This document shows, in pieces, positions 1-19,102 of a DNA stretch of 21,851 nucleotides; the stretch's first letter is position 1, and each line of letters opens with the position of its first letter. The notes beneath the pieces are model-generated. The model saw only the letters and a program-made list of their open reading frames with translations. It was not told where the DNA came from and made no database searches. Where the stretch lies: the IMG/VR virus record IMGVR_UViG_2547132277_000002; one strand, 5' to 3'. The position numbers were made by a program, and so were the translations under genes. The DNA comes from a virus. Lineage: Duplodnaviria; Heunggongvirae; Uroviricota; Caudoviricetes.

Positions 1-1024
1 TCCGTAGTTCATCATCCAGCGAGATCCGTATTGATACCGGCTGGCCACACAGGCTTTCCGGTACGCTGTAACGGTTCCCGCCAACCTCGATATAGCCATC
101 CCAGGAGACATGACGGATATCGAAATAGCTGGTATCGAAGTCCGTACCCGGCAGCGGATGCAGATGCTCCTGTTCCTGCGTGAAGCGCTGTTCCGGTGTC
201 TGCCTGAACTGGCGAAGTTCTCGCCTGTCAGCAACGTCAGCCATCCACTGCTCCAGTAGCTGGTTAACATGGGCGAAGCTGTCGAACCGGCGGTACCGGA
301 TGAAGAAGTTTTCCTTGAGGTATTTCACCATCCGTTCAACCTTACCTTTGGTTCTGGCCCTTCGTGGACGGCAGGCCCGTGGCAGGAAGCCATAGTGATC
401 GGCCAGCAGCAGGAACCCGGAGTTGAACACCACCTTCCCGTTGTTATTTTTCAGCACTGCGGCTTTCTGGTTATCGACCAGCACGGTTTTCACGCTACCG
501 CCGAAGTAGCGAAAGGCGCGGACCAGTGACTCATAGGTATGTTCAGCATCCTGCTTTGGTGCCGCGAAGACATGGAAGCGACGTGAGAACCCCAGCGTAT
601 TAACCGCGAAGTTAACCCTGCATCGTTGCCCGGCAACCTCAGCCTCAACTTCTCCCCAGTCATGCTGTAGCTGGTAACCGGGCTGAGTTTCGAAGCGAAC
701 CGTTTTCTTCGATGGCCGCATCTTACGTTTGGGCTGGATGTAGTAGCGCAACATGGAACGGCCACCGGTATAACCCATCGCTTTGATTTCCGCCAGGATG
801 ACCTCGCCGTTCCAGACGTTCTCAGCCAGACGCATATCTATATAGTCCATGAACGGCTTGAGTTTGGCCATTTTGTGGCGTGTTTTTCTGGCCGGAGGTT
901 CCGGGTATTTCAGGTACCGTCTGACGGTCCGCTCAGAGCAACCAACCTGAGTGGCAATATCAACAATATACGCACCTTGCTGGCGCATTTGCTTTATCAT
1001 GTAAAAATCCTCTCTGCTCAGCAT
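1..1024 (-). CDS. istA: IS21-family transposase IstA, N-terminal ~341 codons (C-terminus beyond window)
   Basis: Minus-strand translation from ATG at 1024-1022 reads MLSREDFYMIKQMRQQGAYIVDIATQVGCSERTVRRYLKYPEPP... with no stop to the window edge; N-terminal HTH plus DDE-type core matches IstA of IS21 as recalled. Absent from ORF track because it has no stop in window. Confidence 0.8.
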   Translation of the reverse strand, partial: MLSREDFYMIKQMRQQGAYIVDIATQVGCSERTVRRYLKYPEPPARKTRHKMAKLKPFMDYIDMRLAENVWNGEVILAEIKAMGYTGGRSMLRYYIQPKRKMRPSKKTVRFETQPGYQLQHDWGEVEAEVAGQRCRVNFAVNTLGFSRRFHVFAAPKQDAEHTYESLVRAFRYFGGSVKTVLVDNQKAAVLKNNNGKVVFNSGFLLLADHYGFLPRACRPRRARTKGKVERMVKYLKENFFIRYRRFDSFAHVNQLLEQWMADVADRRELRQFRQTPEQRFTQEQEHLHPLPGTDFDTSYFDIRHVSWDGYIEVGGNRYSVPESLCGQPVSIRISLDDELR

Positions 1025-1125
1025 GAGTGTTCCCTTTGTGGTGTAGGAACCTTAAGGAAACAACATGTTGGGTGGAGCGGACAATCCAAATGGTGAATTA
1101 CTGTCTTATATCATTGGCGCTGACA
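1..1125 (-). mobile_element. IS21-family insertion sequence, left-end portion (element continues past window start; istB expected off-window)
   Basis: istA frame runs off the window edge; ~100 bp terminal region 1025-1125 lies upstream of istA; lysozyme homology of the adjacent gene stops abruptly near 1125. Exact IS end not determinable by eye. Confidence 0.65.
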
Positions 1126-1560
1126 ATCTTTTATCCACCAGCGAATCGCCTCGCATGCACCCTTACGATCACCGGCATTCAGCCGCTTATAAAACGTCGA
1201 CGGGAAACACTTACCGGGGCCAATGTTATAGGGACAAAATGACGCTATACCCGCTTTCTGGGGTTCGCTCAATGGCACTTTGATGTTTTTCTCCACCCAT
1301 GCCAGCGCCTTATCACGCTCAATGGCGTTAACCTGGTCGCATTCTTCCTTCGACAGCTTCATTCCCGGTATGACGGGCTTACCATCCACCATTGTGGCAC
1401 CACGACAGATGGTCCATATACCGGAACCATCGCGGTATGCCGTAGTGTGGTTACCCTCTTTTTCATCCAGAAACTGGTCAAGTATTTGAGGAGCAGACGC
1501 GCCTGCAGCAATCAGCGCCAGAACAGCAGCTGACAGGCCGTATTTGATTTTTGCGCTCAT
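1111..1560 (-). pseudogene. Phage SAR-type endolysin (T4-lysozyme-like, GH24), 3-prime end truncated by the IS21-family insertion
   Basis: 149-aa ORF with N-terminal signal-anchor-release stretch YGLSAAVLALIAAGASAP and catalytic E-x8-D-x5-T spacing (E in KEG, D in RDG, T in IWT). Homology to lambdoid prophage lysozymes (RrrD-like, ~165 aa, recalled) ends after ...EAIRWWIKD; the last codons CQRQ-stop read into IS sequence. Confidence 0.7.
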
Positions 1561-1615
1561 GGATATTTATCAGGATGCTACCAATGAAAGATACTGGAAA
1601 GCCAACTGCAAAAAG

Positions 1616-1930
1616 CTAACAACCCGTAATCGAGTTATCAGAACTGTTAATTTTTATGGTATACCGCGCCTCTGAACAGGGGCGCGTTTCTGGCAACAGC
1701 TCGTCCCCTTCACATAACCCGGCAGCAACATCCAGGAAGACCTGTCTGATGCTCCTTCTGGCTGCTGCCTCATAAAACTCCAGCGCTGCACCTTCAACAC
1801 GGTCCAGCGAGATGTCCAGGTCAAAAATTTCACCGTCAAAGCGTTTTTTGTCCCGTAACGCTAAAGTTACCGTAACTTTATTCTCAAAATTGCGGATCCC
1901 TTTCACAATCAGTTCATAGTTTTGAGTCAT
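1616..1930 (-). CDS. Small phage protein between holin and lysozyme (YdfR-like, DUF1327-like by recollection)
   Basis: 104-aa ORF in the conserved holin / small ORF / lysozyme arrangement of Qin-type lysis cassettes; no recognisable catalytic motif. Confidence 0.5.
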   Translation of the reverse strand: MTQNYELIVKGIRNFENKVTVTLALRDKKRFDGEIFDLDISLDRVEGAALEFYEAAARRSIRQVFLDVAAGLCEGDELLPETRPCSEARYTIKINSSDNSITGC

Positions 1931-1934
1931 TGAA

Positions 1935-2150
1935 TTACTCTCCCCGTGCAGCCTTACGCTTGTCTTCTCTGATTTTGAAGTACAGATTTGTCAGATAAGT
2001 CAGGAAGCCCAGAACCAGACTCCCCAGTACACCAATCGCAGCCCACTGTGACGGACTGACCTGATCAAGCCACTGTAAAAACCAGTAGCCAGCACTGCCT
2101 GCGGAGGTGCCATAGGCAATGCCCGTTGAAATTTTGTCCATGGATTTCAT
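1935..2150 (-). CDS. Holin, lambdoid S-like class II (EssD family)
   Basis: 71-aa ORF with two hydrophobic helices ([19 protein letters not shown]; [23 protein letters not shown]) and a charged C-terminus [13 protein letters not shown]; near-identical to DLP12 EssD as recalled. Confidence 0.8.
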
Positions 2151-2207
2151 AGCCTCACCTCCGCAAATAACGGATGGCGTAGTTTTACACTGAGAAATGA
2201 AAGGGAT

Positions 2208-2236
2208 TTGAAAAGAAAAGCCCGCAAAAGCGGGCG
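2208..2236 (-). terminator. Rho-independent terminator between tRNA array and holin (candidate tR-prime, the target of Q antitermination)
   Basis: Plus-strand GCCCGC-AAAA-GCGGGC hairpin at 2220-2235; on the minus strand it is followed by TTTTCTTTTC. Confidence 0.5.
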
Positions 2237-2310
2237 AAACAATATATACAGTAAGGAAAGCACTCTATCCAACAAACCACCCACAGTTAATCGGAATAAA
2301 AGCAGAGTGC

Positions 2311-2383
2311 TTATGAATGATCGCCTGCCCGAAGGTTAGTATTTCTGCACAGCAATTTTGCAAAAAAAGGCGATCATTCATAA
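2311..2383. repeat. Perfect 15-bp inverted repeat (TTATGAATGATCGCC / GGCGATCATTCATAA) with 43-nt spacer
   Basis: Arms at 2311-2325 and 2369-2383 are exact reverse complements; located between tRNA-Gly and the putative tR-prime. Confidence 0.6.
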
Positions 2384-2442
2384 CTTAAACGTCCTTCAGT
2401 CACTCCGGGATTTCCCATCATCGCAGACTGAAAGACTCTGAC

Positions 2443-2517
<75 letters not shown>

Positions 2518-2520
2518 ATA

Positions 2521-2596
<76 letters not shown>

Positions 2597-2598
2597 AC

Positions 2599-2675
2599 TG
2601 GACCGCCACCGGGGACTCGAACCTCGCACACTCAACTTAAAGAGTTGACGCTCTTTCCTGATGAGCTAGTGGCGG
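2599..2675 (-). tRNA. tRNA of uncertain identity (manual fold gives anticodon UUU, Lys-like, with atypical C at position 33)
   Basis: 77 nt, CCA encoded; acceptor CCGCCAC/GTGGCGG (C1-G72), D-arm GCTC-ATCAGGAAA-GAGC, anticodon stem TCAAC/GTTGA, loop UCUUUAA, T-loop TTCGAGT. Needs tRNAscan-SE. Confidence 0.5.
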
Positions 2676-2676
2676 T

Positions 2677-2752
2677 TGGTGGCCCTTGCTGGATTTGAAC
2701 CAGCGACCTGGCGATTATGAGTCGCTCGCTCTCACCACTGAGCTAAAGGGCC
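2677..2752 (-). tRNA. tRNA with CAU anticodon, ileX/ileZ-like (tRNA-Ile2; elongator Met not excluded)
   Basis: 76 nt, CCA encoded; GGCCCTTTAGCTCAGTGGTGAGAGC...CTCATAA...GGTTCAAATCC...AAGGGCCACCA closely resembles E. coli tRNA-Ile2 as recalled; anticodon loop CUCAUAA. Confidence 0.7.
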
Positions 2753-2761
2753 GGGCGCAGG

Positions 2762-2790
2762 ATAATAACGTTACGAAATCAATGTTGCAA
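2762..2790 (-). promoter_or_regulatory. Sigma70-like promoter driving the tRNA array / late operon (candidate PR-prime)
   Basis: Minus-strand -35 TTGCAA (plus 2785-2790), 17-bp spacer, -10 TATTAT (plus 2762-2767); predicted start just upstream of the first tRNA (5-prime end at 2752). Confidence 0.45.
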
Positions 2791-2871
2791 GCATTCAAAA
2801 ATCACTTGGTTAAAAATCACCCTTATCTCCTCCACCAGCGCATTCACCATGTCTATCCGAGATAAGTGACA

Positions 2872-2894
2872 CAAAAAAACCCGCTTGATGCGGG
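2872..2894 (-). terminator. Hairpin terminator separating the cargo operon from the tRNA/late promoter
   Basis: CCCGC-TTGAT-GCGGG stem-loop at 2880-2894 preceded by an A7 run on plus (T7 after the stem on minus); only TTT follows on the plus strand. Confidence 0.5.
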
Positions 2895-2942
2895 TTTAAG
2901 TTGTGTGGCGAAGCGACCACTCTTAACAGATTAAGATAGTTT

Positions 2943-2972
2943 TTGCGTACGCGTTAGTGATTTTTTCATAAT
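2943..2972 (+). promoter_or_regulatory. Candidate sigma70 promoter for the plus-strand three-gene cargo operon
   Basis: -35 TTGCGT at 2943-2948, 18-bp spacer, -10 CATAAT at 2967-2972, ~45 bp upstream of the probable start codon. Confidence 0.4.
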
Positions 2973-2984
2973 TATCTGTATCCT

Positions 2985-3896
2985 GTGGCTATTTCTCTTG
3001 CGCAAAGGATGCTTTTGATGACGCAGCAACTCGAAAACATGCCAATAACAGAAATCGAAATTGCCTACGGTGGAGAGGCATACGCAGATAATCAGATCGA
3101 CGCGAAAACATTAGGCGAAGCCTTAACCTCTCTTAGTGCCCTGATTGAACACGCCGAAAAAATAATTAATGGCGAAACAGCAGAGCCGAAAGTCAACATC
3201 AAGGCAACAAAAGAAGGTTCATTTACTTTGCTTGTTGCTGTGATGGGGAGCATAAAAACTATTAACGCCCTTGGCCTCGTTGCAGGTGGTGGAGTTGCCG
3301 CAGGTGGCGTACTCGGGATAATCGAATGGCTCAAAGGGCGTAAAATCAGCTCCATTGTCGTCGATGAACAAAAAGATACAGCAGAAATCGAAGTGGATGG
3401 TGAGAAGGTTAAATGCAGTAACGACATTCAAAAATTAATAACCAGTCCAATCATCCGAAAAGAACTGGATAAATTAATCTATAAACCCCTGCAGACTGAA
3501 AAACCATCCACGTTCTCAGTTTCACAGCAGAAGCATAAGGTAGTCAGGGTGACGCAAGCTGAAGCAGTAAGTTTTAAAACTGCAAAATCCACCTTTGTCG
3601 AGAAAACGCACGTAACGACACGCCAAGCTAATGTACATTTTGCTAATGTTCGATTCAAGCAAGGCAAAAGCTGGGATATCATCCTGCCAAATGGCGAAGA
3701 AGTTAGCGCATCTATGAAAGATGAGGCTTTTCTTGAACGGGTTGAACACAACCAAGCAGCATTCTGTAAGGGTGATCTTTTTGTTGTAGAACTGACAGAA
3801 ACAACAAAAGAAACAAATGGCGCGCTGTCTAAACCACGCTATAGTATTACTAAGGTTATACGCCACAGAGCGGCGGCAGATAGGAAACTACTTTAA
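2985..3896 (+). CDS. Cargo gene A: unknown protein with a central Gly-rich hydrophobic segment (probable start ATG 3018, 292 aa)
   Basis: ORF-track start 2985 is GTG; ATG at 3018 has AAGGA 8 nt upstream. Hydrophobic stretch FTLLVAVMGSIKTINALGLVAGGGVAAGGVLGIIEWL; no motif I can assign. Opposite strand to every flanking phage gene. Confidence 0.6.
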   Translation: MAISLAQRMLLMTQQLENMPITEIEIAYGGEAYADNQIDAKTLGEALTSLSALIEHAEKIINGETAEPKVNIKATKEGSFTLLVAVMGSIKTINALGLVAGGGVAAGGVLGIIEWLKGRKISSIVVDEQKDTAEIEVDGEKVKCSNDIQKLITSPIIRKELDKLIYKPLQTEKPSTFSVSQQKHKVVRVTQAEAVSFKTAKSTFVEKTHVTTRQANVHFANVRFKQGKSWDIILPNGEEVSASMKDEAFLERVEHNQAAFCKGDLFVVELTETTKETNGALSKPRYSITKVIRHRAAADRKLL

Positions 3897-8870: not shown

Positions 8871-9917
8871 TTACCATATGGAGTTGTGAATGAACTTTAA
8901 TTCATTTTTTATTTTGTTAACAGATAAATTCACGGATGTCCTAACTCTATTCACAGTCATTGCATCTCCTGGATTTAACAACTCTAATGGTTTAGACTTA
9001 GCACTTGACATTCTGCCACTACCCAGAAAATCATCAAGAATCACAATGTGATTATTAGGATCATCTGTTGTAAAATTACTAATATTTTGTCGAATTACCT
9101 CTCTTACAGCTTCGATGTACATTTTTGTCTGTTGATTTGGTTTATTCCTTGCTCCTGCCACTGTTGACCATCCGCAATGGGTAATAACCACCATCTGAAT
9201 TTTTGGTGTATGGCCATCAGACGGCATTATCTTTCTAAATTCTGATGTTGGTTTAGTCAGAGTATCAATAAGTAATCTTAATGAATTAATCGATTGCTGA
9301 TCTGTCCTCACTGGAACTATTAAAGCATCTGTTGCATGCCAAGATAAATGCGTCGCTCCAGAGAAAAAAGGTGATGTATCAATTAACGCTTTTGTAGTAC
9401 CAGTTTCAACCATTTCTCTGGCTATTTCTTTCTTCAGAGAAAAAAGAATTGTATCAATAACAACCTGCTGAGTAGCCCCAGAAATTGTTCTGGCTTGAGC
9501 CAGAGCATTCGCCATTTGCGTAGGTAGAAGATAAAGTTGACTATCAGATTGAATAAAATAGTTATTCTTGCCCGCAAACCAAGCATTAGTTGATGATACT
9601 AGCTTTGCAGCACGCGTTGCAAATCCAAGCCCTGGAACAAAATAAGGCATTAAGAGGTCATTTGCAGTTGTGCTAGACGAAGATGCATAATTATTGTCAA
9701 AAAAATATGATAAATTTCCTTGCGGGCACGTATCCACGATTAATGCGTTATCCGCCAAATATGACAGATTAAAAGTTAAAGATGTCTTACCAATGCCTCC
9801 CCGTAAATTACATACTGTATATTTATCATATTTCGGCAAATTAAGACTTCTTACATTACCGTCAGCAACTTCGAATTGACGCTCTATCAGAGCATTAACA
9901 TTTGATTCACTAGTCAT
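8871..9917 (-). CDS. ParA/MinD-family (SIMIBI) P-loop ATPase-like protein, standalone, AT-rich
   Basis: 348 aa; deviant Walker A NLRGGIGKTS (Arg at the signature-Lys position), IVDTCPQGN (ParA DxDPQ-type motif), ALIDTSP Walker-B-like; sampled lines ~34% GC versus ~50-55% in the phage backbone. Confidence 0.65.
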   Translation of the reverse strand: MTSESNVNALIERQFEVADGNVRSLNLPKYDKYTVCNLRGGIGKTSLTFNLSYLADNALIVDTCPQGNLSYFFDNNYASSSSTTANDLLMPYFVPGLGFATRAAKLVSSTNAWFAGKNNYFIQSDSQLYLLPTQMANALAQARTISGATQQVVIDTILFSLKKEIAREMVETGTTKALIDTSPFFSGATHLSWHATDALIVPVRTDQQSINSLRLLIDTLTKPTSEFRKIMPSDGHTPKIQMVVITHCGWSTVAGARNKPNQQTKMYIEAVREVIRQNISNFTTDDPNNHIVILDDFLGSGRMSSAKSKPLELLNPGDAMTVNRVRTSVNLSVNKIKNELKFIHNSIW

Positions 9918-9947
9918 ATCGCCACCATTAGTTTTACACTTTTATTG

Positions 9948-9976
9948 ATGATATGGAAAACTAACCTAGTTGTCAA
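9948..9976 (-). promoter_or_regulatory. Near-consensus sigma70 promoter for the ParA-like gene
   Basis: Minus-strand -35 TTGACA (plus 9971-9976), exact 17-bp spacer, -10 TATCAT (plus 9948-9953), ~30 bp upstream of the ATG at 9917. Confidence 0.55.
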
Positions 9977-10401
9977 CAATGGATTAAAAAACAAACACAC
10001 AAGCGTTTATCAAAAGCACCTTGATTGGTGATACTACCGTGTCTTTCAGCCAAACAGTTCAGTATGTAAAGCGAATCCAACATCAATTAAGAACGTTTTC
10101 AGCGCTCCCCCAGTTGTCTAGATGTCAAACTTCATGCGCTCTCCTGTCGAAATAAACGTACTGATTAATCATGCCCAAGGACATTTCGCGTTTTACAGCG
10201 ATATCACGGCGGGGAACTCCACACTGATGAAGCTTCCGCACTAGCTCAATATCGCTTTGCGGATGTTTTTTTGATTGGTTATAACCCCCCCTCTTAACAT
10301 CCTATTGATACCCAGTTCCTGCGCTTTCGCTCTGACAGCATAACTAGAACGATCAATCAACCCTCCTATGCTTTCGGCCGTCAACGCGTCTACACAATTG
10401 C

Positions 10402-14046: not shown

Positions 14047-14068
14047 TAGCTAACCAACGAGGCTAATA

Positions 14069-14443
14069 ATGGAATTTAAAGATTTACCAATGCAATTCCA
14101 GGAAATGGCAGCGAATATAGTTCGTTCCCAACTGGCGACTCTTGACCTGAGTACCGTAGAAAAAGAAACCATCGATACTATATCCGGTAACGTGCGTCGT
14201 GCCTTTATCGGTCTGTACGAAGAGAAGCAGCTCTCTGATAACCAGGATTTACATGAAAAATACCTCCTGGAATTAATGGATATCATTGATAAGGGGTTTG
14301 GCTTGTTAATGAAAAAGAAAGGGATTCGGATAGAACCCCTTAAGAACCATTTTACTGAGTGCGGCATTAATCCCAGCGATTTAAACCATCCCGCCACAGA
14401 TGGGAGTGTTACAGTTAGCCATGAAATTTCGATTAATCATTAA
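14069..14443 (+). CDS. Hypothetical early-left protein
   Basis: 124 aa; SD GAGG upstream of ATG. Confidence 0.5.
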   Translation: MEFKDLPMQFQEMAANIVRSQLATLDLSTVEKETIDTISGNVRRAFIGLYEEKQLSDNQDLHEKYLLELMDIIDKGFGLLMKKKGIRIEPLKNHFTECGINPSDLNHPATDGSVTVSHEISINH

Positions 14444-14654
14444 AATCAATTGCACTTTCAATAAGTGATGCCATCTCATTGCATTTTGTTGAATTCATCT
14501 TACGCAATGAGTCACAAATTTCCGCTGGCTTTGATGACGCAGGCAACTTAGCAGCAAGTAGCATAATTGCCGTTTTTATAGCAGTGAGCTCATCCGCAAG
14601 TCCAGCAGGAGAAACATCGTGGTTAAACTGGATATTTACATTTTTACTAGTCAT
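14433..14654 (-). CDS. Small convergent (antisense-oriented) gene inside the early-left operon, 73 aa
   Basis: ATG at 14654 with AGGAGG 5 nt upstream; 3-prime end overlaps the stop of the 124-aa plus-strand gene by 11 bp. Confidence 0.4.
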   Translation of the reverse strand: MTSKNVNIQFNHDVSPAGLADELTAIKTAIMLLAAKLPASSKPAEICDSLRKMNSTKCNEMASLIESAIDFND

Positions 14655-15047
14655 TTCACCCTCCTGAGGGTTGGTAATTAAGGAGTTCTCCACGGGTCAG
14701 GTGGAGTGCGTGCGCCGGACACGGGTGAGCATCCGGCACTGGCAGTTTACTGGAAGGATATATCCCTGAAAAGTCAGGACATAACGCGAAAGCGCACGGC
14801 GAAGTTATTCTGTCTGTACGGTGTCGTTAAATTTAATTCGACCGTGCGCTTCCGGTTGTGGCAATCCGCGAAATGGCGCGGCGGTAAGTATGGCGGGGTT
14901 ATTCCTTCCCCGTTGAGGACACCGGGTTGTCAGGTTGACCATACGCTTAAGTGACAACCCCGCTGCAACGCCCTCTGTTATCAATTTTCTGGTGGCGTTT
15001 AGCGGTATCAGTTTTACTCCGTGACTGCTCTGCCGCCCTTTTTAAAG

Positions 15048-15195
15048 TGAATTTTGTGATGCGGTGAATGCGGCTAAGCGCACGCGGAACAGTTAAAACC
15101 AAAAACAGTGTTATGGGTGGGTTCTCTGTATCCGGCGTTAATTGTTAACTGGTTAACGTCACCTGGAGGCACCAGGCACCGCATCACAAAATTCA
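15048..15195. repeat. Perfect 19-bp inverted repeat (TGAATTTTGTGATGCGGTG / CACCGCATCACAAAATTCA) enclosing 110 bp with nested GTTAAC palindromes
   Basis: Arms at 15048-15066 and 15177-15195 are exact reverse complements; internal CGTTAATTGTTAACTGGTTAACG at 15136-15158; right arm ends 18 bp before the next start codon. Confidence 0.6.
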
Positions 15196-15213
15196 TTGTT
15201 GAGGACGCGATAA

Positions 15214-15401
15214 TGGAAACGTTATTACCAAACGTTAATACGTCTGAAGGTTGTTTTGAAATTGGTGTCACTATCAGTAACCCAGTATTTACTGAAGATG
15301 CCATTAACAAGAGAAAACAAGAACGGGAGCTATTAAATAAAATATGCATTGTTTCAATGCTGGCTCGTTTACGTCTGATGCCAAAAGAATGTGCACAATG
15401 A
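15214..15401 (+). CDS. Small hypothetical protein (62 aa from ATG 15214)
   Basis: SD GAGGA 8 nt upstream of ATG 15214; the ORF-track start 15108 lies inside the inverted-repeat region. Confidence 0.4.
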
Positions 15402-15589
15402 ATTCAGCATTTGCGCTTGTTCTGACAGTTTATCTTGTTTCCGGAGAGTCAGTTGATATTGCAGTCAGTGTTCACAGGACAATGCAGGAATGTATGACTG
15501 CAGCAACCGAACAGAAAATTCCCGGTAACTGTTACCCGGTCGATAAAGTTATTCACCAGGATAATAACGAAATCCCGGCAGGTCTTTAA
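15398..15589 (+). CDS. Small protein with signal-peptide-like N-terminus (63 aa)
   Basis: ATGA overlap with the previous stop; MNSAFALVLTVYLVSG hydrophobic N-terminus. Confidence 0.4.
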   Translation: MNSAFALVLTVYLVSGESVDIAVSVHRTMQECMTAATEQKIPGNCYPVDKVIHQDNNEIPAGL

Positions 15590-15681: not shown

Positions 15682-18153
15682 ATGAGTAAAGTCTTTATTT
15701 GCGCCGCCATTCCGGACGAACAGGCAATAAAGGAAGAAGGTGCAGTCGCTGTAGCCACTGCCATTGAAGCCGGTGATGAACGTCGCGCCCGCGCAAAATT
15801 TCACTGGCAATTCCTGGAGCATTATCCGGCTGCTCAGGACTGCGCTTATAAATTTCTTGTTTGCGAGGATAAACCCGGTATATCCCGCCCTGCCCTCGAT
15901 TCCTGGGATGCTGAATATATGCAGGAAAACCGCTGGGATGAGGAGTCTGCTTCCTTTGTCCCGGTTGAGACTGAATCAGATCCGATGAACGTCACTTTTG
16001 ACAAGCTGACCCCTGAAGTACAGAACGCTGTCATGGTTAAGTTCGACACATGTGAAAACATCACCGTTGATATGGTGATTAGCGCGCAGGAATTGTTGCA
16101 GGAAGACATGGCAACATTCGACGGACATATCGTTGAAGCGTTGATGAAAATGCCAGAAGTTAACGCCATGTATCCAGAACTTAAGTTGCATGCCATCGGG
16201 TGGGTTAAGCATAAATGTAAGCCTGGAGCTAAATGGCCCGAAATTCAGGCAGAGATGCGCATCTGGAAAAAACGTCGCGAAGGTGAACGCAAGGAAACCG
16301 GAAAATACACGTCTGCTGTTGATCTCGCCCGCGCCAGAGTCAACCGACAGCACACTGAAAACTCAGCAGAAAATATCTCCCCTGTCACTGCAGTCATTCA
16401 TCGCGAATACAAGCAGACATGGAAAACACTGGATGACGAACTGGCCTACGCTCTCTGGCCTGGTGATGTGGATGCCGGAAACATTGACGGCAGCATCCAT
16501 CGCTGGGCAAAAAATGAAGTTATCGACAACGACCGCGAAGACTGGAAGCGTATCTCGGCATCGATGCGCAAACAGCCTGATGCCCTTCGCTACGACCGCC
16601 AGACTATTTTTGGCCTTGTCCGTGGACGTCCGATCGACATTCACAAAGATCCTGTGGCACTGAACAAATACATTACTGAATACCTGACTACAAAGGGCGT
16701 GTTTGAAGATGAAGGAACAAATCAGAGCGCAACTGATACTCTCTCGTCGCCAGTACCAGAAACTGATGCAGTGGAAACGGCAATTCCGGACAACGAAAAA
16801 ACCGAATGCAAAGTGGAAGTCGAACCATCTGTAGAACGTGAGGGGCCGTTCTACTTCCTCTTCACCGACAAGGATGGCGAAAAATACGGTCGCGCAAACA
16901 AACTTTCTGGTCTGGATAAGGCGCTGGCTGCCGGGGCTACTGAAATCACGAAAGAAGAATATTTCGCCCGCAAAAACGGTACATACTCAGGTTTACAACA
17001 AAATACTGGTGCATCTGACACGACCGCACAACCAGAGCCGGTAAAAGTTACCGCTGACGAAGTAAACAAAATTATGCAGGCAGCCAATATCAGCCAGCCT
17101 GACGCCGATGAACTGCTTGCAGTATCACGTGGTGAATTTGTTGCAGGGATTAGCGATCCGAATGATCCGAAATGGGTGAAGGGGATTGAAACCCGCGATT
17201 CTGTGAACCAGAACCAGCAAGAAACGGAACAGAACGACCAGAAAGCGGAACAAAACAGCCCAAATGTGCAACGAAAAGAGCCAAAAACGAAACAATCCGA
17301 ACCAGTAGCGCAACAGGAACCGGAAAAAGTCTGCACCGTCTGCGGTCAGAGCGGTGGCGGCAACTGCCCTGATTGTGGCGCGGTGATGGGCGACGCAACA
17401 TACCAGGAAACATTCGATGACGAGAACCAAGTTGAAGTTCAGGAAGACGATTCGGAGGAAATGGAAGGCGCTGAACATCCACACAAGGAGAATGCTGGCA
17501 GCGCTCAGGACCACGCCAGCGATAATGAAACTGGCGAGGCGACAGATCTCTTAATTAAGGCGAACGGTCATCATAATCTCACATCCACCAGCAGAGCGGG
17601 GATTCATCTGATGATCGACCTTGAAACCATGGGAAAAAATCCCGATGCCCCGATTATCTCAATAGGCGCAATATTTTTCGATCCACAAACCGGAGATATG
17701 GGACCGGAATTTAGCAAGACCATCGATCTGGATACTGCTGGCGGAGTCATTGATCGTGACGTCATTAAATGGTGGCTGAAGCAATCACGTGAAGCGCAGT
17801 CTGCCATTATGACCGATGAAATCCCGTTAGATGATGCACTACTGCAATTGCGGGAATTTATCGACGAAAACTCCGGTGAATTTTTTGTTCAGGTCTGGGG
17901 AAATGGAGACAACTTCGACAACGTGATTTTACGCCGCTCATACGAACGACAGGGGATCCCCTGCCCGTGGCGCTACTGCAACGATCGCGATGTACGCACA
18001 ATCGTTGAATTAGGAAAAGCCCTGGACTTCGATGCCAGAACGGCTATTCCATTCGAAGGTGAGCGCCATAATGCACTTGATGACGCTCGTTACCAGGCAA
18101 AATACATTTCAGCTATCTGGCAAAAACTGATCCCGAGTCAGGCTGATTTTTAA
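15682..18153 (+). CDS. RecE-like large exonuclease: central C4 zinc finger and C-terminal DEDDh 3-prime to 5-prime exonuclease domain
   Basis: 823 aa; segment ELLAVSRGEFVAGISDPNDPKWVKGIETRD resembles RecE as recalled; CTVCGQSGGGNCPDCG zinc finger; C-terminal Exo I DLE (MIDLETMG), Exo II NGDNFDNVIL, Exo III HNALDDA. Confidence 0.7.
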   Translation: MSKVFICAAIPDEQAIKEEGAVAVATAIEAGDERRARAKFHWQFLEHYPAAQDCAYKFLVCEDKPGISRPALDSWDAEYMQENRWDEESASFVPVETESDPMNVTFDKLTPEVQNAVMVKFDTCENITVDMVISAQELLQEDMATFDGHIVEALMKMPEVNAMYPELKLHAIGWVKHKCKPGAKWPEIQAEMRIWKKRREGERKETGKYTSAVDLARARVNRQHTENSAENISPVTAVIHREYKQTWKTLDDELAYALWPGDVDAGNIDGSIHRWAKNEVIDNDREDWKRISASMRKQPDALRYDRQTIFGLVRGRPIDIHKDPVALNKYITEYLTTKGVFEDEGTNQSATDTLSSPVPETDAVETAIPDNEKTECKVEVEPSVEREGPFYFLFTDKDGEKYGRANKLSGLDKALAAGATEITKEEYFARKNGTYSGLQQNTGASDTTAQPEPVKVTADEVNKIMQAANISQPDADELLAVSRGEFVAGISDPNDPKWVKGIETRDSVNQNQQETEQNDQKAEQNSPNVQRKEPKTKQSEPVAQQEPEKVCTVCGQSGGGNCPDCGAVMGDATYQETFDDENQVEVQEDDSEEMEGAEHPHKENAGSAQDHASDNETGEATDLLIKANGHHNLTSTSRAGIHLMIDLETMGKNPDAPIISIGAIFFDPQTGDMGPEFSKTIDLDTAGGVIDRDVIKWWLKQSREAQSAIMTDEIPLDDALLQLREFIDENSGEFFVQVWGNGDNFDNVILRRSYERQGIPCPWRYCNDRDVRTIVELGKALDFDARTAIPFEGERHNALDDARYQAKYISAIWQKLIPSQADF

Positions 18154-18404
18154 TGTTCAACCGTCGCCAGTTGTCGTTGGTATTCTGCAACTGGCGCGTT
18201 CCGGAGTGATAGCCATGAGCGAACAATACCTGATAACGCTCGATGAGTGGAAACCAAAACGGTTCAGTCTCCCAATAACAAACACTACCCTGGTGAAATA
18301 CGGAAAACTAGGATACATCGTTCCAAGACCACAAAAAATTCGTGGGCGTTGGCTGATAGATCGCCGAGCAGTATTTGTTGGGCCTGGTGGGTAGTGACTC
18401 CAAC

Positions 18405-18908
18405 TTACTGATAGTGTTTTATGTTCAGATAATGCCCGATGACCTTGTCATGCAGCTCCACCGATTTTGAGAACGACAGTGACTTCCGTCCCAGCCTTGC
18501 CAGATGTTGTCTCAGATTCAGATTATGTCGCTCAATGCGCTGAGTGTAACGCTTGCTGATAACGTGCAGCTTTCCCTTCAGGCGTGATTCATACAGCGGC
18601 CAGCCATCCGTCATCCATACCACGACCTCAAAGGCCGACAGCAGGCTCAGAAGACGCGCCAGTGTGGCCAGAGTGCGTTCACCGAAAACGTGCGCCACAA
18701 CTGTCCTCCGTATCCTGTCATACGCGTAAAACAGCCAGCGCTGACGTGATTTAGCACCGACGTAGCCCCACTGTTCGTCCATTTCCGCGCAGACAATCAC
18801 ATCACTGCCCGGTTGTATGCGCGAGGTTACCGACTGCGGCCTGAGTTTTTTAAGTGACGTAAAACCGTGTTGAGGCCAACGCCCATAATGCGGGCAGTTG
18901 CCCGGCAT
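18405..18908 (-). CDS. insB: IS1 InsB frame (expressed as the InsAB-prime transposase by -1 frameshift)
   Basis: 167-aa ORF overlapping the insA 3-prime end in the -1 frame, as in IS1. Confidence 0.85.
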
Positions 18909-19102
18909 CCAACGCCATTCATGGCCATATCAATGATTTTCTGGTGCGTACCGGGTTGAGAAGCGGTGTAAGTGAACTGCAGTTGCCATGTTTTACGGCA
19001 GTGAGAGCAGAGATAGCGCTGATGTCCGGCGGTGCTTTTGCCGTTACGCACCACCCCGTCAGTAGCTGAACAGGAGGGACAGCTGATAGAAACAGAAGCC
19101 AC
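18827..19102 (-). CDS. insA: IS1 InsA
   Basis: 91-aa [48 protein letters not shown]..., zinc-finger/HTH protein of IS1. Confidence 0.9.

Follow-up and report, generated by a model that had tools for sequence, protein, structure and literature searches.

What does a perfect inverted repeat do when it stands between a small RNA and a gene with a toxic product, and does it act as DNA or as RNA? The repeat at issue lies in a 21,851-nt stretch of viral DNA (Caudoviricetes; IMG/VR record IMGVR_UViG_2547132277_000002), which in its full length is referred to here as the window. Its two 19-nt arms, 15048 to 15066 (TGAATTTTGTGATGCGGTG) and 15177 to 15195, are 100% complementary and are separated by 110 nt; our repeat search reproduced exactly the coordinates given in an initial annotation of this DNA. 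By an analytic estimate, ∼1.6 × 10−5 perfect 19-nt inverted repeats within 200 nt are expected by chance in 21.8 kb. No second place in the window matches the arm sequence, even when three mismatches are allowed, and 100 shuffles gave no match. The left flank (AAAG) and the right flank (TTGT) show no direct repeat, in agreement with the earlier observation that a target-site duplication is absent. The initial annotation had also described the stretch from 14694 to 15213 as GC-rich; this is correct for the leader upstream of DicF (14694 to 14985; 55% GC) but not for the repeat unit, which at 47% equals the window mean of 47%.

The repeat lies in the dicBF operon of a Qin-like prophage

The repeat sits in the untranslated 174-nt spacer between the sRNA DicF and dicB in the early-left operon of a lambdoid prophage, with the following landmarks:

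14986 to 15038, + strand: DicF sRNA, 53 nt, aligned to K-12 dicF (b1574, 1649382 to 1649434)
15039 to 15043, + strand: U-run of the DicF terminator, directly upstream of the element
15201 to 15205, + strand: dicB Shine-Dalgarno sequence, GAGGA
15213 to 15401, + strand: dicB coding sequence (Pfam DicB PF05358, 132 bits; RefSeq annotation of identical DNA)

DicF, which the initial annotation had not recognized, matches its Rfam model (RF00039) at 14987 to 15038; its 68.6 bits exceed the gathering score of 48, and 9 nt separate the DicF 3′ end from the left arm. From the right arm to the dicB ATG at 15213 there are 17 nt, and not 18 nt to a start codon as previously stated. Downstream of dicB follow ydfD (DUF1482), the gene for an 823-aa exonuclease, a truncated xis with an IS1, int and potC. 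The repeat had been placed next to a RecE-like module; the adjoining gene is in fact dicB, then comes ydfD and only afterwards the exonuclease, for which Pfam gives an Rv2179c-like DEDD domain and no match to a RecE family. The suggestion that the repeat controls a recombination module is not supported either, because the exonuclease gene is too distant and the element is located directly before dicB. The dicBF operon of the K-12 Qin prophage is ∼95% identical to this region and has the same 174-nt spacing between DicF and dicB; the two arms correspond to K-12 1649444 to 1649462 and 1649573 to 1649591. A 611-bp query around the repeat finds matches in 4,732 of 5,426 complete genomes of E. coli, and the number of places per genome has a median of two and reaches 10.

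Some features of the surrounding prophage deserve mention in their own right. The exonuclease gene (15682 to 18153) encodes a C-terminal Rv2179c-like 3′–5′ exoribonuclease (DEDD) domain (Pfam, 218 bits). IS1 at 18405 to 19102 on the − strand, with InsA and InsB′ ORFs (Pfam, 75 to 249 bits), interrupts the excisionase gene, and its insertion has left an Exc fragment of 62 aa at 18206 to 18394; the prophage is probably locked in place by this insertion. In strain 99-3165, which is otherwise identical, IS1 instead lies between ydfC and the dicF leader. Compared to K-12 Qin, the window has a 602-bp insertion (14067 to 14668) between ydfC and the dicF leader that encodes a 124-aa ORF on the + strand and a 73-aa ORF on the − strand, neither with a Pfam family. 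This insertion makes dicBp transcripts cross a longer untranslated stretch and brings in an antisense gene. Four tRNA genes (Gly-TCC, Thr-TGT, Lys-TTT and Met-CAT) are located at 2443 to 2752 on the − strand, inside the prophage region; tRNA genes also adjoin STnc100-like elements in P1-like phages.

The spacer forms a conserved fold on the + strand

The RNA of the spacer has an MFE fold of −72.6 kcal/mol (z = −6.2 versus shuffled sequences), in which the arms, extended by wobble pairs, make up a closing helix P1 of 21 to 25 bp around four hairpins, P2 to P5. The parts of the fold are:

15042 to 15066, + strand: 5′ strand of P1; perfect part 15048 to 15066, weaker pairs out to 15042 (25 pairs in the MFE fold)
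15067 to 15069, + strand: junction AAU, invariant in 40 of 40 sequences
15070 to 15085, + strand: hairpin P2 (RNAalifold prediction)
15086 to 15133, + strand: P3 arm, with a 3-bp closing helix (15086 to 15088 with 15131 to 15133)
15090 to 15096, + strand: 5′ strand of the pseudoknot, CAGUUAA, inside the P3 arm
15097 to 15130, + strand: hypervariable hairpin within the P3 arm
15134 to 15160, + strand: hairpin P4, with a 9-bp stem (15134 to 15142 with 15152 to 15160)
15143 to 15151, + strand: P4 loop of 9 nt, UGUUAACUG, in which bases 15145 to 15151 (UUAACUG) pair with 15090 to 15096
15162 to 15176, + strand: hairpin P5 (CCUGG, loop AGGCA, CCAGG), directly abutting the 3′ strand of P1
15177 to 15202, + strand: 3′ strand of P1; perfect part 15177 to 15195, weaker pairs reaching 15202

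The outer pairs of P1 include G15201 and A15202, the first two bases of the dicB Shine-Dalgarno sequence. P5 is almost invariant, also when true STnc100 copies (see below) are included, while the P3 arm varies in length, so that the interval from P2 to P5 ranges from 61 to 87 nt among copies, in steps that are not multiples of 3.

Comparison of copies supports this fold. The element was collected from annotated phages, a scan of viral contigs and K-12, which gave 57 distinct sequences, and 40 of these were aligned (alignment A3). On A3, RNAalifold recovers the inner part of P1, P2, the 3-bp closure of P3, P4 and P5, with double changes in 9 of 31 pairs. When the full P1 is added, 94.5% of the 1,760 cells in the 40 sequences are standard pairs, compared to 31 to 43% if the strands are slid by one to three columns; double changes then occur in 13 pairs and 61 cells, and this cell count was reached in none of 500 shuffles. 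Compensatory changes affect four of the nine stem pairs of P4, both variable closing pairs of P3 have double changes, and in P5 a U-A pair is replaced by G-C in seven sequences. In the outer arms, two clean double changes (UGA/UCA to CGA/UCG and GAU/AUC to GGU/ACC) occur in one lineage of E. coli, and in Klebsiella-type copies the closing stem stays at 15 to 25 bp despite a different sequence.

The changes also reveal the strand. Changes on one side of a pair yield 161 G·U cells versus 36 A·C cells; K-12 itself differs from the window by one C-to-U transition per arm, which gives two G·U pairs on the + strand in place of G-C. Such an excess of G·U over A·C would be expected for + strand RNA but not for DNA or the opposite strand. 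The inverted repeat is an RNA structure on the + strand and not a DNA element: its arms are the closing helix of a conserved fold backed by covariation, and the structured RNA that the initial annotation had listed among its options is borne out. RNA folding and an Rfam search, which it had proposed as checks, gave the stable fold described above, DicF upstream and, on the element, a match to STnc100 below threshold.

Two candidate readings of the spacer were rejected. The GTG-extended ORF at 15108 to 15401 belongs only to the DicB family, its 15108 to 15212 portion has no Pfam match and length differences in the variable arm do not keep the reading frame, in disagreement with protein coding. 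A tRNA-like element was considered as well, and ARAGORN finds none at the element.

A covarying pseudoknot connects the P3 arm with the P4 loop

CAGUUAA (15090 to 15096), which just follows the closing pairs of P3, is complementary to UUAACUG (15145 to 15151), which makes up the last seven bases on the 3′ side of the P4 loop. The dicB/kil/P7 group shows no variation in either strand and is, therefore, uninformative about their pairing. In relatives, both strands change together, and the pseudoknot is kept in >15 different sequence versions, among them (5′ strand / 3′ strand):

L061 type: AAGGUUG / CAACCUU
a P1-like type: UGGUUAU / AUAACCA
second D6 copy: AGCCAU / GUGGCU
true STnc100 copies: AUCAGCA / UGCUGAU, ACUGGC / GCCAGU, CUGGUG / CACCAG, AAUGAC / GUCAUU
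further true STnc100 copies: ACUGGAUA / UAUCCAGU, ACUGGUGG / CCGCCAGU, UCCAGAA / UUCUGGA

In all of the relatives' versions, the 5′ strand starts 33 to 36 nt into the unit and the 3′ strand is located in the P4 loop. Cognate junction/loop helices have a mean length of 6.8 bp compared to 4.6 bp for non-cognate ones, a contrast that is diluted because near-identical variants count as non-cognate. For these comparisons the strands were taken by anchored extraction; the MAFFT alignment A4 shifts the register by 1 to 2 nt between subfamilies and misaligns the second D6 copy. The pseudoknot also bears on the "nested GTTAAC palindromes" that had been noticed inside the repeat. The string is present (CGTTAATTGTTAACTGGTTAACG, 15136 to 15158), but as a dyad it is imperfect and corresponds to the 9-bp hairpin stem of P4 with two G·U pairs; judged from the sequences, the palindromes are best read as this stem plus the covarying 7-bp pseudoknot. 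We found no mention of the pseudoknot in the literature searched, and a 2026 preprint on PasD/STnc100 used RNAalifold without pseudoknot modelling.

The element occurs as a module before several small genes

The unit alone (15033 to 15197) is 82 to 91% identical in phages without dicF or dicB flanks, and its inner core (15060 to 15183) is found in the P1-like phages P7 and D6 and in one Klebsiella phage (BLAST of phage records). The genes downstream of the element in these cases are:

kil/kilR: Rac-SA53, Shigella 75/02 Stx, PhiR5_2 and others
terB/tciA: P7 and D6, inside the tRNA-ban operon
other small ORFs: viral contigs

In each context examined, the element ends ∼17 to 25 nt before the start of the small gene; the placement is conserved, and the downstream genes are small and often target FtsZ. 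All 57 genuine DicF loci collected carry the element, and none is an empty site. Recombinant copies exist, e.g., with a left side of the DicF type and a right arm of the kil type, indicating that module exchange occurs inside the element. The KilS-kilR leader of the Rac prophage (KilS b4833; Bar et al. 2021, PMC8175672) has the same layout: a DicF-like sRNA with its terminator is followed by the element, with 82% identity, and then, ∼20 nt downstream, by kilR, the gene for a small FtsZ inhibitor, whereas the window has dicB at this place. The right arm in Rac has a 1-nt bulge and a G·U pair, and the element is unannotated in K-12.

KilS of Rac (L182; K-12 1418405 to 1418502) scores 39 bits on the DicF model and is a DicF relative. 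In L061-type prophages (L061, 3445 to 3667), a KilS/DicF-like terminator hairpin lies directly 3′ of an STnc100-like core. This arrangement suggests that the sRNA and the core form one ancestral unit. Two records with the E. coli dicF/kil region are assigned to other hosts, i.e., MT713136.1 (Aeromonas phage AP1; 97.5% identity) and PP818812.1 (Actinobacillus phage vB_Apl-pPE4; 88% identity), the latter also with Rac-like ydaT, dicA, kil and recE neighbours; the host assignment or assembly of both looks doubtful. A DicF pattern scan of genome contigs returned mostly chance matches in unrelated organisms and added no diversity. Its matches in Photorhabdus and Vibrio were rejected, as their sequences are unrelated to dicF and no element follows.

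The closing helix coincides with a published RNase III end

Data on cleavage of the dicF-dicB spacer all come from K-12, in which the spacer is ∼95% identical and P1 has two G·U pairs. There, a 72-nt DicF species has a 3′ end made by RNase III, and a 53-nt form ends at the terminator (Faubladier et al. 1990, as cited in PMC5069750 and PMC9438474). Counted from the DicF 5′ end at 14986 (K-12 1649382), 72 nt lead to 15057/58, i.e., base 10 or 11 of the 19-nt left arm; this position is placed by arithmetic only and is good to a few nucleotides, and the end stays within the arm if the 5′ end is shifted by a few nucleotides. In Gordon et al. 2017 (Table S1), position 1649470 ("dicF-dicB") has 26 reads in Δrnc compared to 0 in the wild type and is flagged as known; this site, which rests on 26 reads, corresponds to 15074 in the window, 8 nt inside the inner end of the left arm. 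A 2009 review, which also cites Faubladier et al. 1990, counts the dicA-dicF-dicB intergenic regions among the RNase III substrates. Ragunathan et al. 2023 (PMC10448788) describe a 1,608-nt ydfABC-dicFB-ydfD read-through transcript in K-12 and found no internal promoter.

P1 has the length of an RNase III helix, i.e., near-continuous double-stranded RNA of about two helical turns (at least 20 bp), with 19 perfect pairs and 21 to 25 when the extensions are counted; the covariation, the G·U excess and the 1,608-nt K-12 transcript place this helix in RNA of the transcribed strand. The window and the K-12 Qin site share the locus type and the 174-nt spacing at ∼95% identity, and the published end of the 72-nt DicF maps to the left arm. 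They differ in that the helix of >20 bp has two G·U pairs in K-12 and a perfect 19 of 19 in the window. In the text accessible to us, published descriptions of dicF-dicB deal with cleavage only and mention neither a multi-hairpin, pseudoknotted interior nor an occurrence outside dicBF.

We consider it probable that, as a whole, the element is best explained as a folded dicF-dicB spacer closed by P1 that serves as a substrate of host RNase III in the processing of read-through transcripts. In this model, transcription from the dicBF promoter would pass the DicF terminator and the 174-nt spacer would fold, the arms pairing as P1 (21 to 25 bp) and closing a compact four-hairpin domain held by the 7-bp pseudoknot. 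Host RNase III would then cut both strands of P1. The cut in the left arm would create the 3′ end of the 72-nt DicF, which would be trimmed at its 3′ end afterwards; because of this cut, read-through transcripts could still yield DicF. The cut in the right arm, which the 2-nt 3′-overhang rule of RNase III would put near 15187/88, would free a dicB-ydfD mRNA with a leader of ∼25 nt, separated from the upstream RNA. Together, the two cuts would excise a folded core of ∼130 nt. The second cut position, the effect on DicB synthesis and any role for the excised core are inferred. In predictions, the Shine-Dalgarno sequence has an unpaired probability of 0.12 to 0.15 in the uncut and 0.35 in the cut form, a small difference, and in the cut form it also pairs with the downstream coding sequence.

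The near-invariance of the 110-nt interior and its pseudoknot are not accounted for by RNase III alone. Nor can RNase III processing be the ancestral function of the core, because P1-like phages and true STnc100 copies have a P1 of 8 to 9 bp, which is too short. Thus, RNase III processing is a lineage-specific addition to the core.

The documented 190-nt DicF precursor has a 5′ end made by RNase III that we place near 14849 to 14855, upstream of DicF. In the MFE fold, a long imperfect hairpin of ∼24 bp (CAUAACGCGAAAGCGCACGGCGAA ... UUCGACCGUGCGCUUCCGGUUGUG) spans 14781 to 14862, with 14849 to 14855 in its 3′ arm. Because this end also falls in the arm of a hairpin, DicF is flanked by two RNase III helices, and the inverted repeat is the downstream one of the two.

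The core is related in fold to STnc100/PasD

With permissive thresholds, the element matches the Rfam STnc100 model (RF02076) with 38.1 bits (E = 9 × 10−7) over model positions 21 to 154 of 206. This is below the gathering score of 47, and in gathering mode there is no match; by comparison, P7 scores 43 bits, and the L061-type subfamily scores 43 bits over the whole model. The element lacks the 3′ terminator module of STnc100 (positions 155 to 206), and the dicB Shine-Dalgarno sequence follows where the match stops. STnc100/PasD and the element have the same order of helices (P1, AAU, P2, a variable arm, P4 with a loop of ∼9 nt, and P5), near-identical GGUGAAU and ACCnGGAGGCACCnGGCACC motifs and the same pseudoknot between junction and P4 loop, and both are carried by prophages. 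By contrast, the sequences of P2 and P4 differ, P1 has 8 bp in STnc100 compared to 21 to 25 bp in the element, and STnc100/PasD is often located downstream of Q/stx, whereas the element lies in the early-left operon before division inhibitors. On these sequence comparisons, we treat the element as a homolog of STnc100 in fold, and not as a member of the family by the Rfam criterion. STnc100 copies are expressed in EHEC (PMC5331693), and PasD is an Hfq-associated sRNA with RIL-seq targets; the literature searched reports no function for STnc100/PasD.

In L186 (∼9185 to 10220), and also in L280, L189 and L208, two to three STnc100 copies with different pseudoknot sequences lie within ∼1 kb.

Alternative explanations

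Two explanations at the level of DNA have to be weighed against the RNA model. In its ∼150-bp size and inverted-repeat ends, the element is like enterobacterial MITE-like repeats, and a MITE, i.e., a small non-autonomous transposable element bounded by the 19-bp terminal inverted repeats, would account for perfect terminal repeats around ∼110 bp and for the many copies per E. coli genome (median two, up to 10). Unlike those repeats, however, it has no target-site duplication, no dispersed copies and no second copy in the window. BLAST, proposed earlier as a test for a MITE, does find copies, but those examined share the same relative slot in prophage early-left operons or the P1 tRNA-ban operon and are not at unrelated sites; the context is fixed, DicF loci are occupied throughout, and homology runs past the repeat into the upstream DicF/KilS terminator. 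Moreover, the ends are less conserved than the interior, the reverse of what is expected for a MITE: the outer repeat is variable and is lost in the P1-like phages P7 and D6, in which the core is kept. Finally, the covariation is of the RNA type, with G·U wobble changes that keep pairing on one strand only. The MITE-like element of the initial annotation is, therefore, hardly conceivable. A DNA-level site, such as an operator or a recombination site with GTTAAC dyads, or an intrinsic terminator or attenuator before dicB, is in our view very unlikely. The dyad symmetry at 15136 to 15158 and the position just upstream of a gene with a toxic product speak for it; yet, our scan found no sigma-70-like promoter in 14400 to 15450 and no hairpin followed by a U-run at the element, where UUGUUGAGGA follows the right arm. 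No internal promoter was found in the operon by Ragunathan et al. 2023 (PMC10448788), and the asymmetry of G·U over A·C also argues against the secondary operator or terminator suggested before. The pseudoknot strands of relatives are non-palindromic (e.g., AAGGUUG/CAACCUU and UGGUUAU/AUAACCA), which a protein-binding palindrome would not tolerate.

Two other explanations build on the RNA itself. The helix at the dicB/kil Shine-Dalgarno sequence might act in cis as a translational gate that keeps translation of read-through RNA low until it is cut or melted. For the phage lambda N leader, there is a precedent of dependence on RNase III. The 2009 review provides a similar precedent in lambda cIII. 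In line with a gate, the element ends ∼17 to 25 nt before a small-gene start codon (dicB, kil, tciA and others) in every context, the outer pairs of P1 reach G15201 and A15202 of GAGGA, and the Shine-Dalgarno sequence is predicted to be more accessible after cutting. However, the predicted gain is small and the cut form is again paired with coding sequence, and in P1-like phages the outer helix is missing although the element still precedes tciA. We regard such a gate as possible but doubtful; it would be compatible with the RNase III explanation. Alternatively, the folded core itself could be the main product, i.e., a trans-acting or factor-binding RNA of the STnc100/PasD type, for which the repeat would just be an RNase III excision signal. 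The match to STnc100, which is significant though below threshold, the score of P7, the architecture and pseudoknot common to true STnc100 copies, the expression of STnc100 in EHEC (PMC5331693) and the RIL-seq targets of the Hfq-associated PasD all fit such a product, and the hypervariable P3 arm on an invariant scaffold could be a specificity region. Against it, the literature searched contains no RNA of core size from the dicF-dicB or KilS-kilR spacer, the terminator/Hfq module of STnc100 (155 to 206) is missing, and even for STnc100 no function is established. On balance, we find the core as main product rather unlikely; it is compatible with the RNase III explanation and does not exclude it.

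Novelty and implications

The feature is real and functional. That RNase III cuts between dicF and dicB is already known from the literature, and taken alone the repeat is ordinary; it marks a processing site in one of the first sRNA operons to be studied. What appears to be new is the homology to STnc100/PasD, the covarying pseudoknot and the finding of the element as a module in front of dicB, kil and tciA. The site is the closing helix of a conserved RNA with tertiary structure, not a simple hairpin, and this RNA ties the leaders of dicB and kil and the element of the P1 tRNA-ban operon to STnc100/PasD. Few sRNA families of bacteria are annotated as often as STnc100, and the covarying pseudoknot offers a concrete structural model for testing the role of STnc100-type RNAs. 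The arrangement suggests, in addition, how a single prophage transcript can combine an sRNA with a toxic protein, FtsZ being the target of both. The new parts are of moderate interest for work on prophage RNAs.

As a speculation, to which we give only a small chance, the invariant pseudoknotted core (P2 to P5 with the pairing of junction and P4 loop) may be an autonomous RNA module common to STnc100/PasD and the leaders of dicB, kil and P1 tciA. The long P1 would have been acquired in the dicB/kil lineage for excision by RNase III, uncoupling DicF/KilS from the toxic gene, and the core would bind a partner (a protein, the ribosome, Hfq/ProQ, or an RNA via the P3 arm) and in that way gate the synthesis of division inhibitors.

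A possible relative of the fold upstream of DicF

The leader just upstream of DicF (14857 to 14970) looks like a relative of the same fold that lacks P5. It would consist of P1′ (GUUGUGGC/GCUGCAAC), a junction AAU (CAAU/CACU/CAAC in variants), P2′ (CCGCG/CGCGG), a variable hairpin and P4′ (GGGUUGUCA/UGACAACCC), the loop of which contains CCAUAC, complementary to GUAUGG after P2′. This leader has no Rfam match, and its sequences are nearly invariant and, thus, without covariation. Should this relationship be real, the 190-nt precursor would represent an STnc100-like unit, of which DicF would form the 3′ module.
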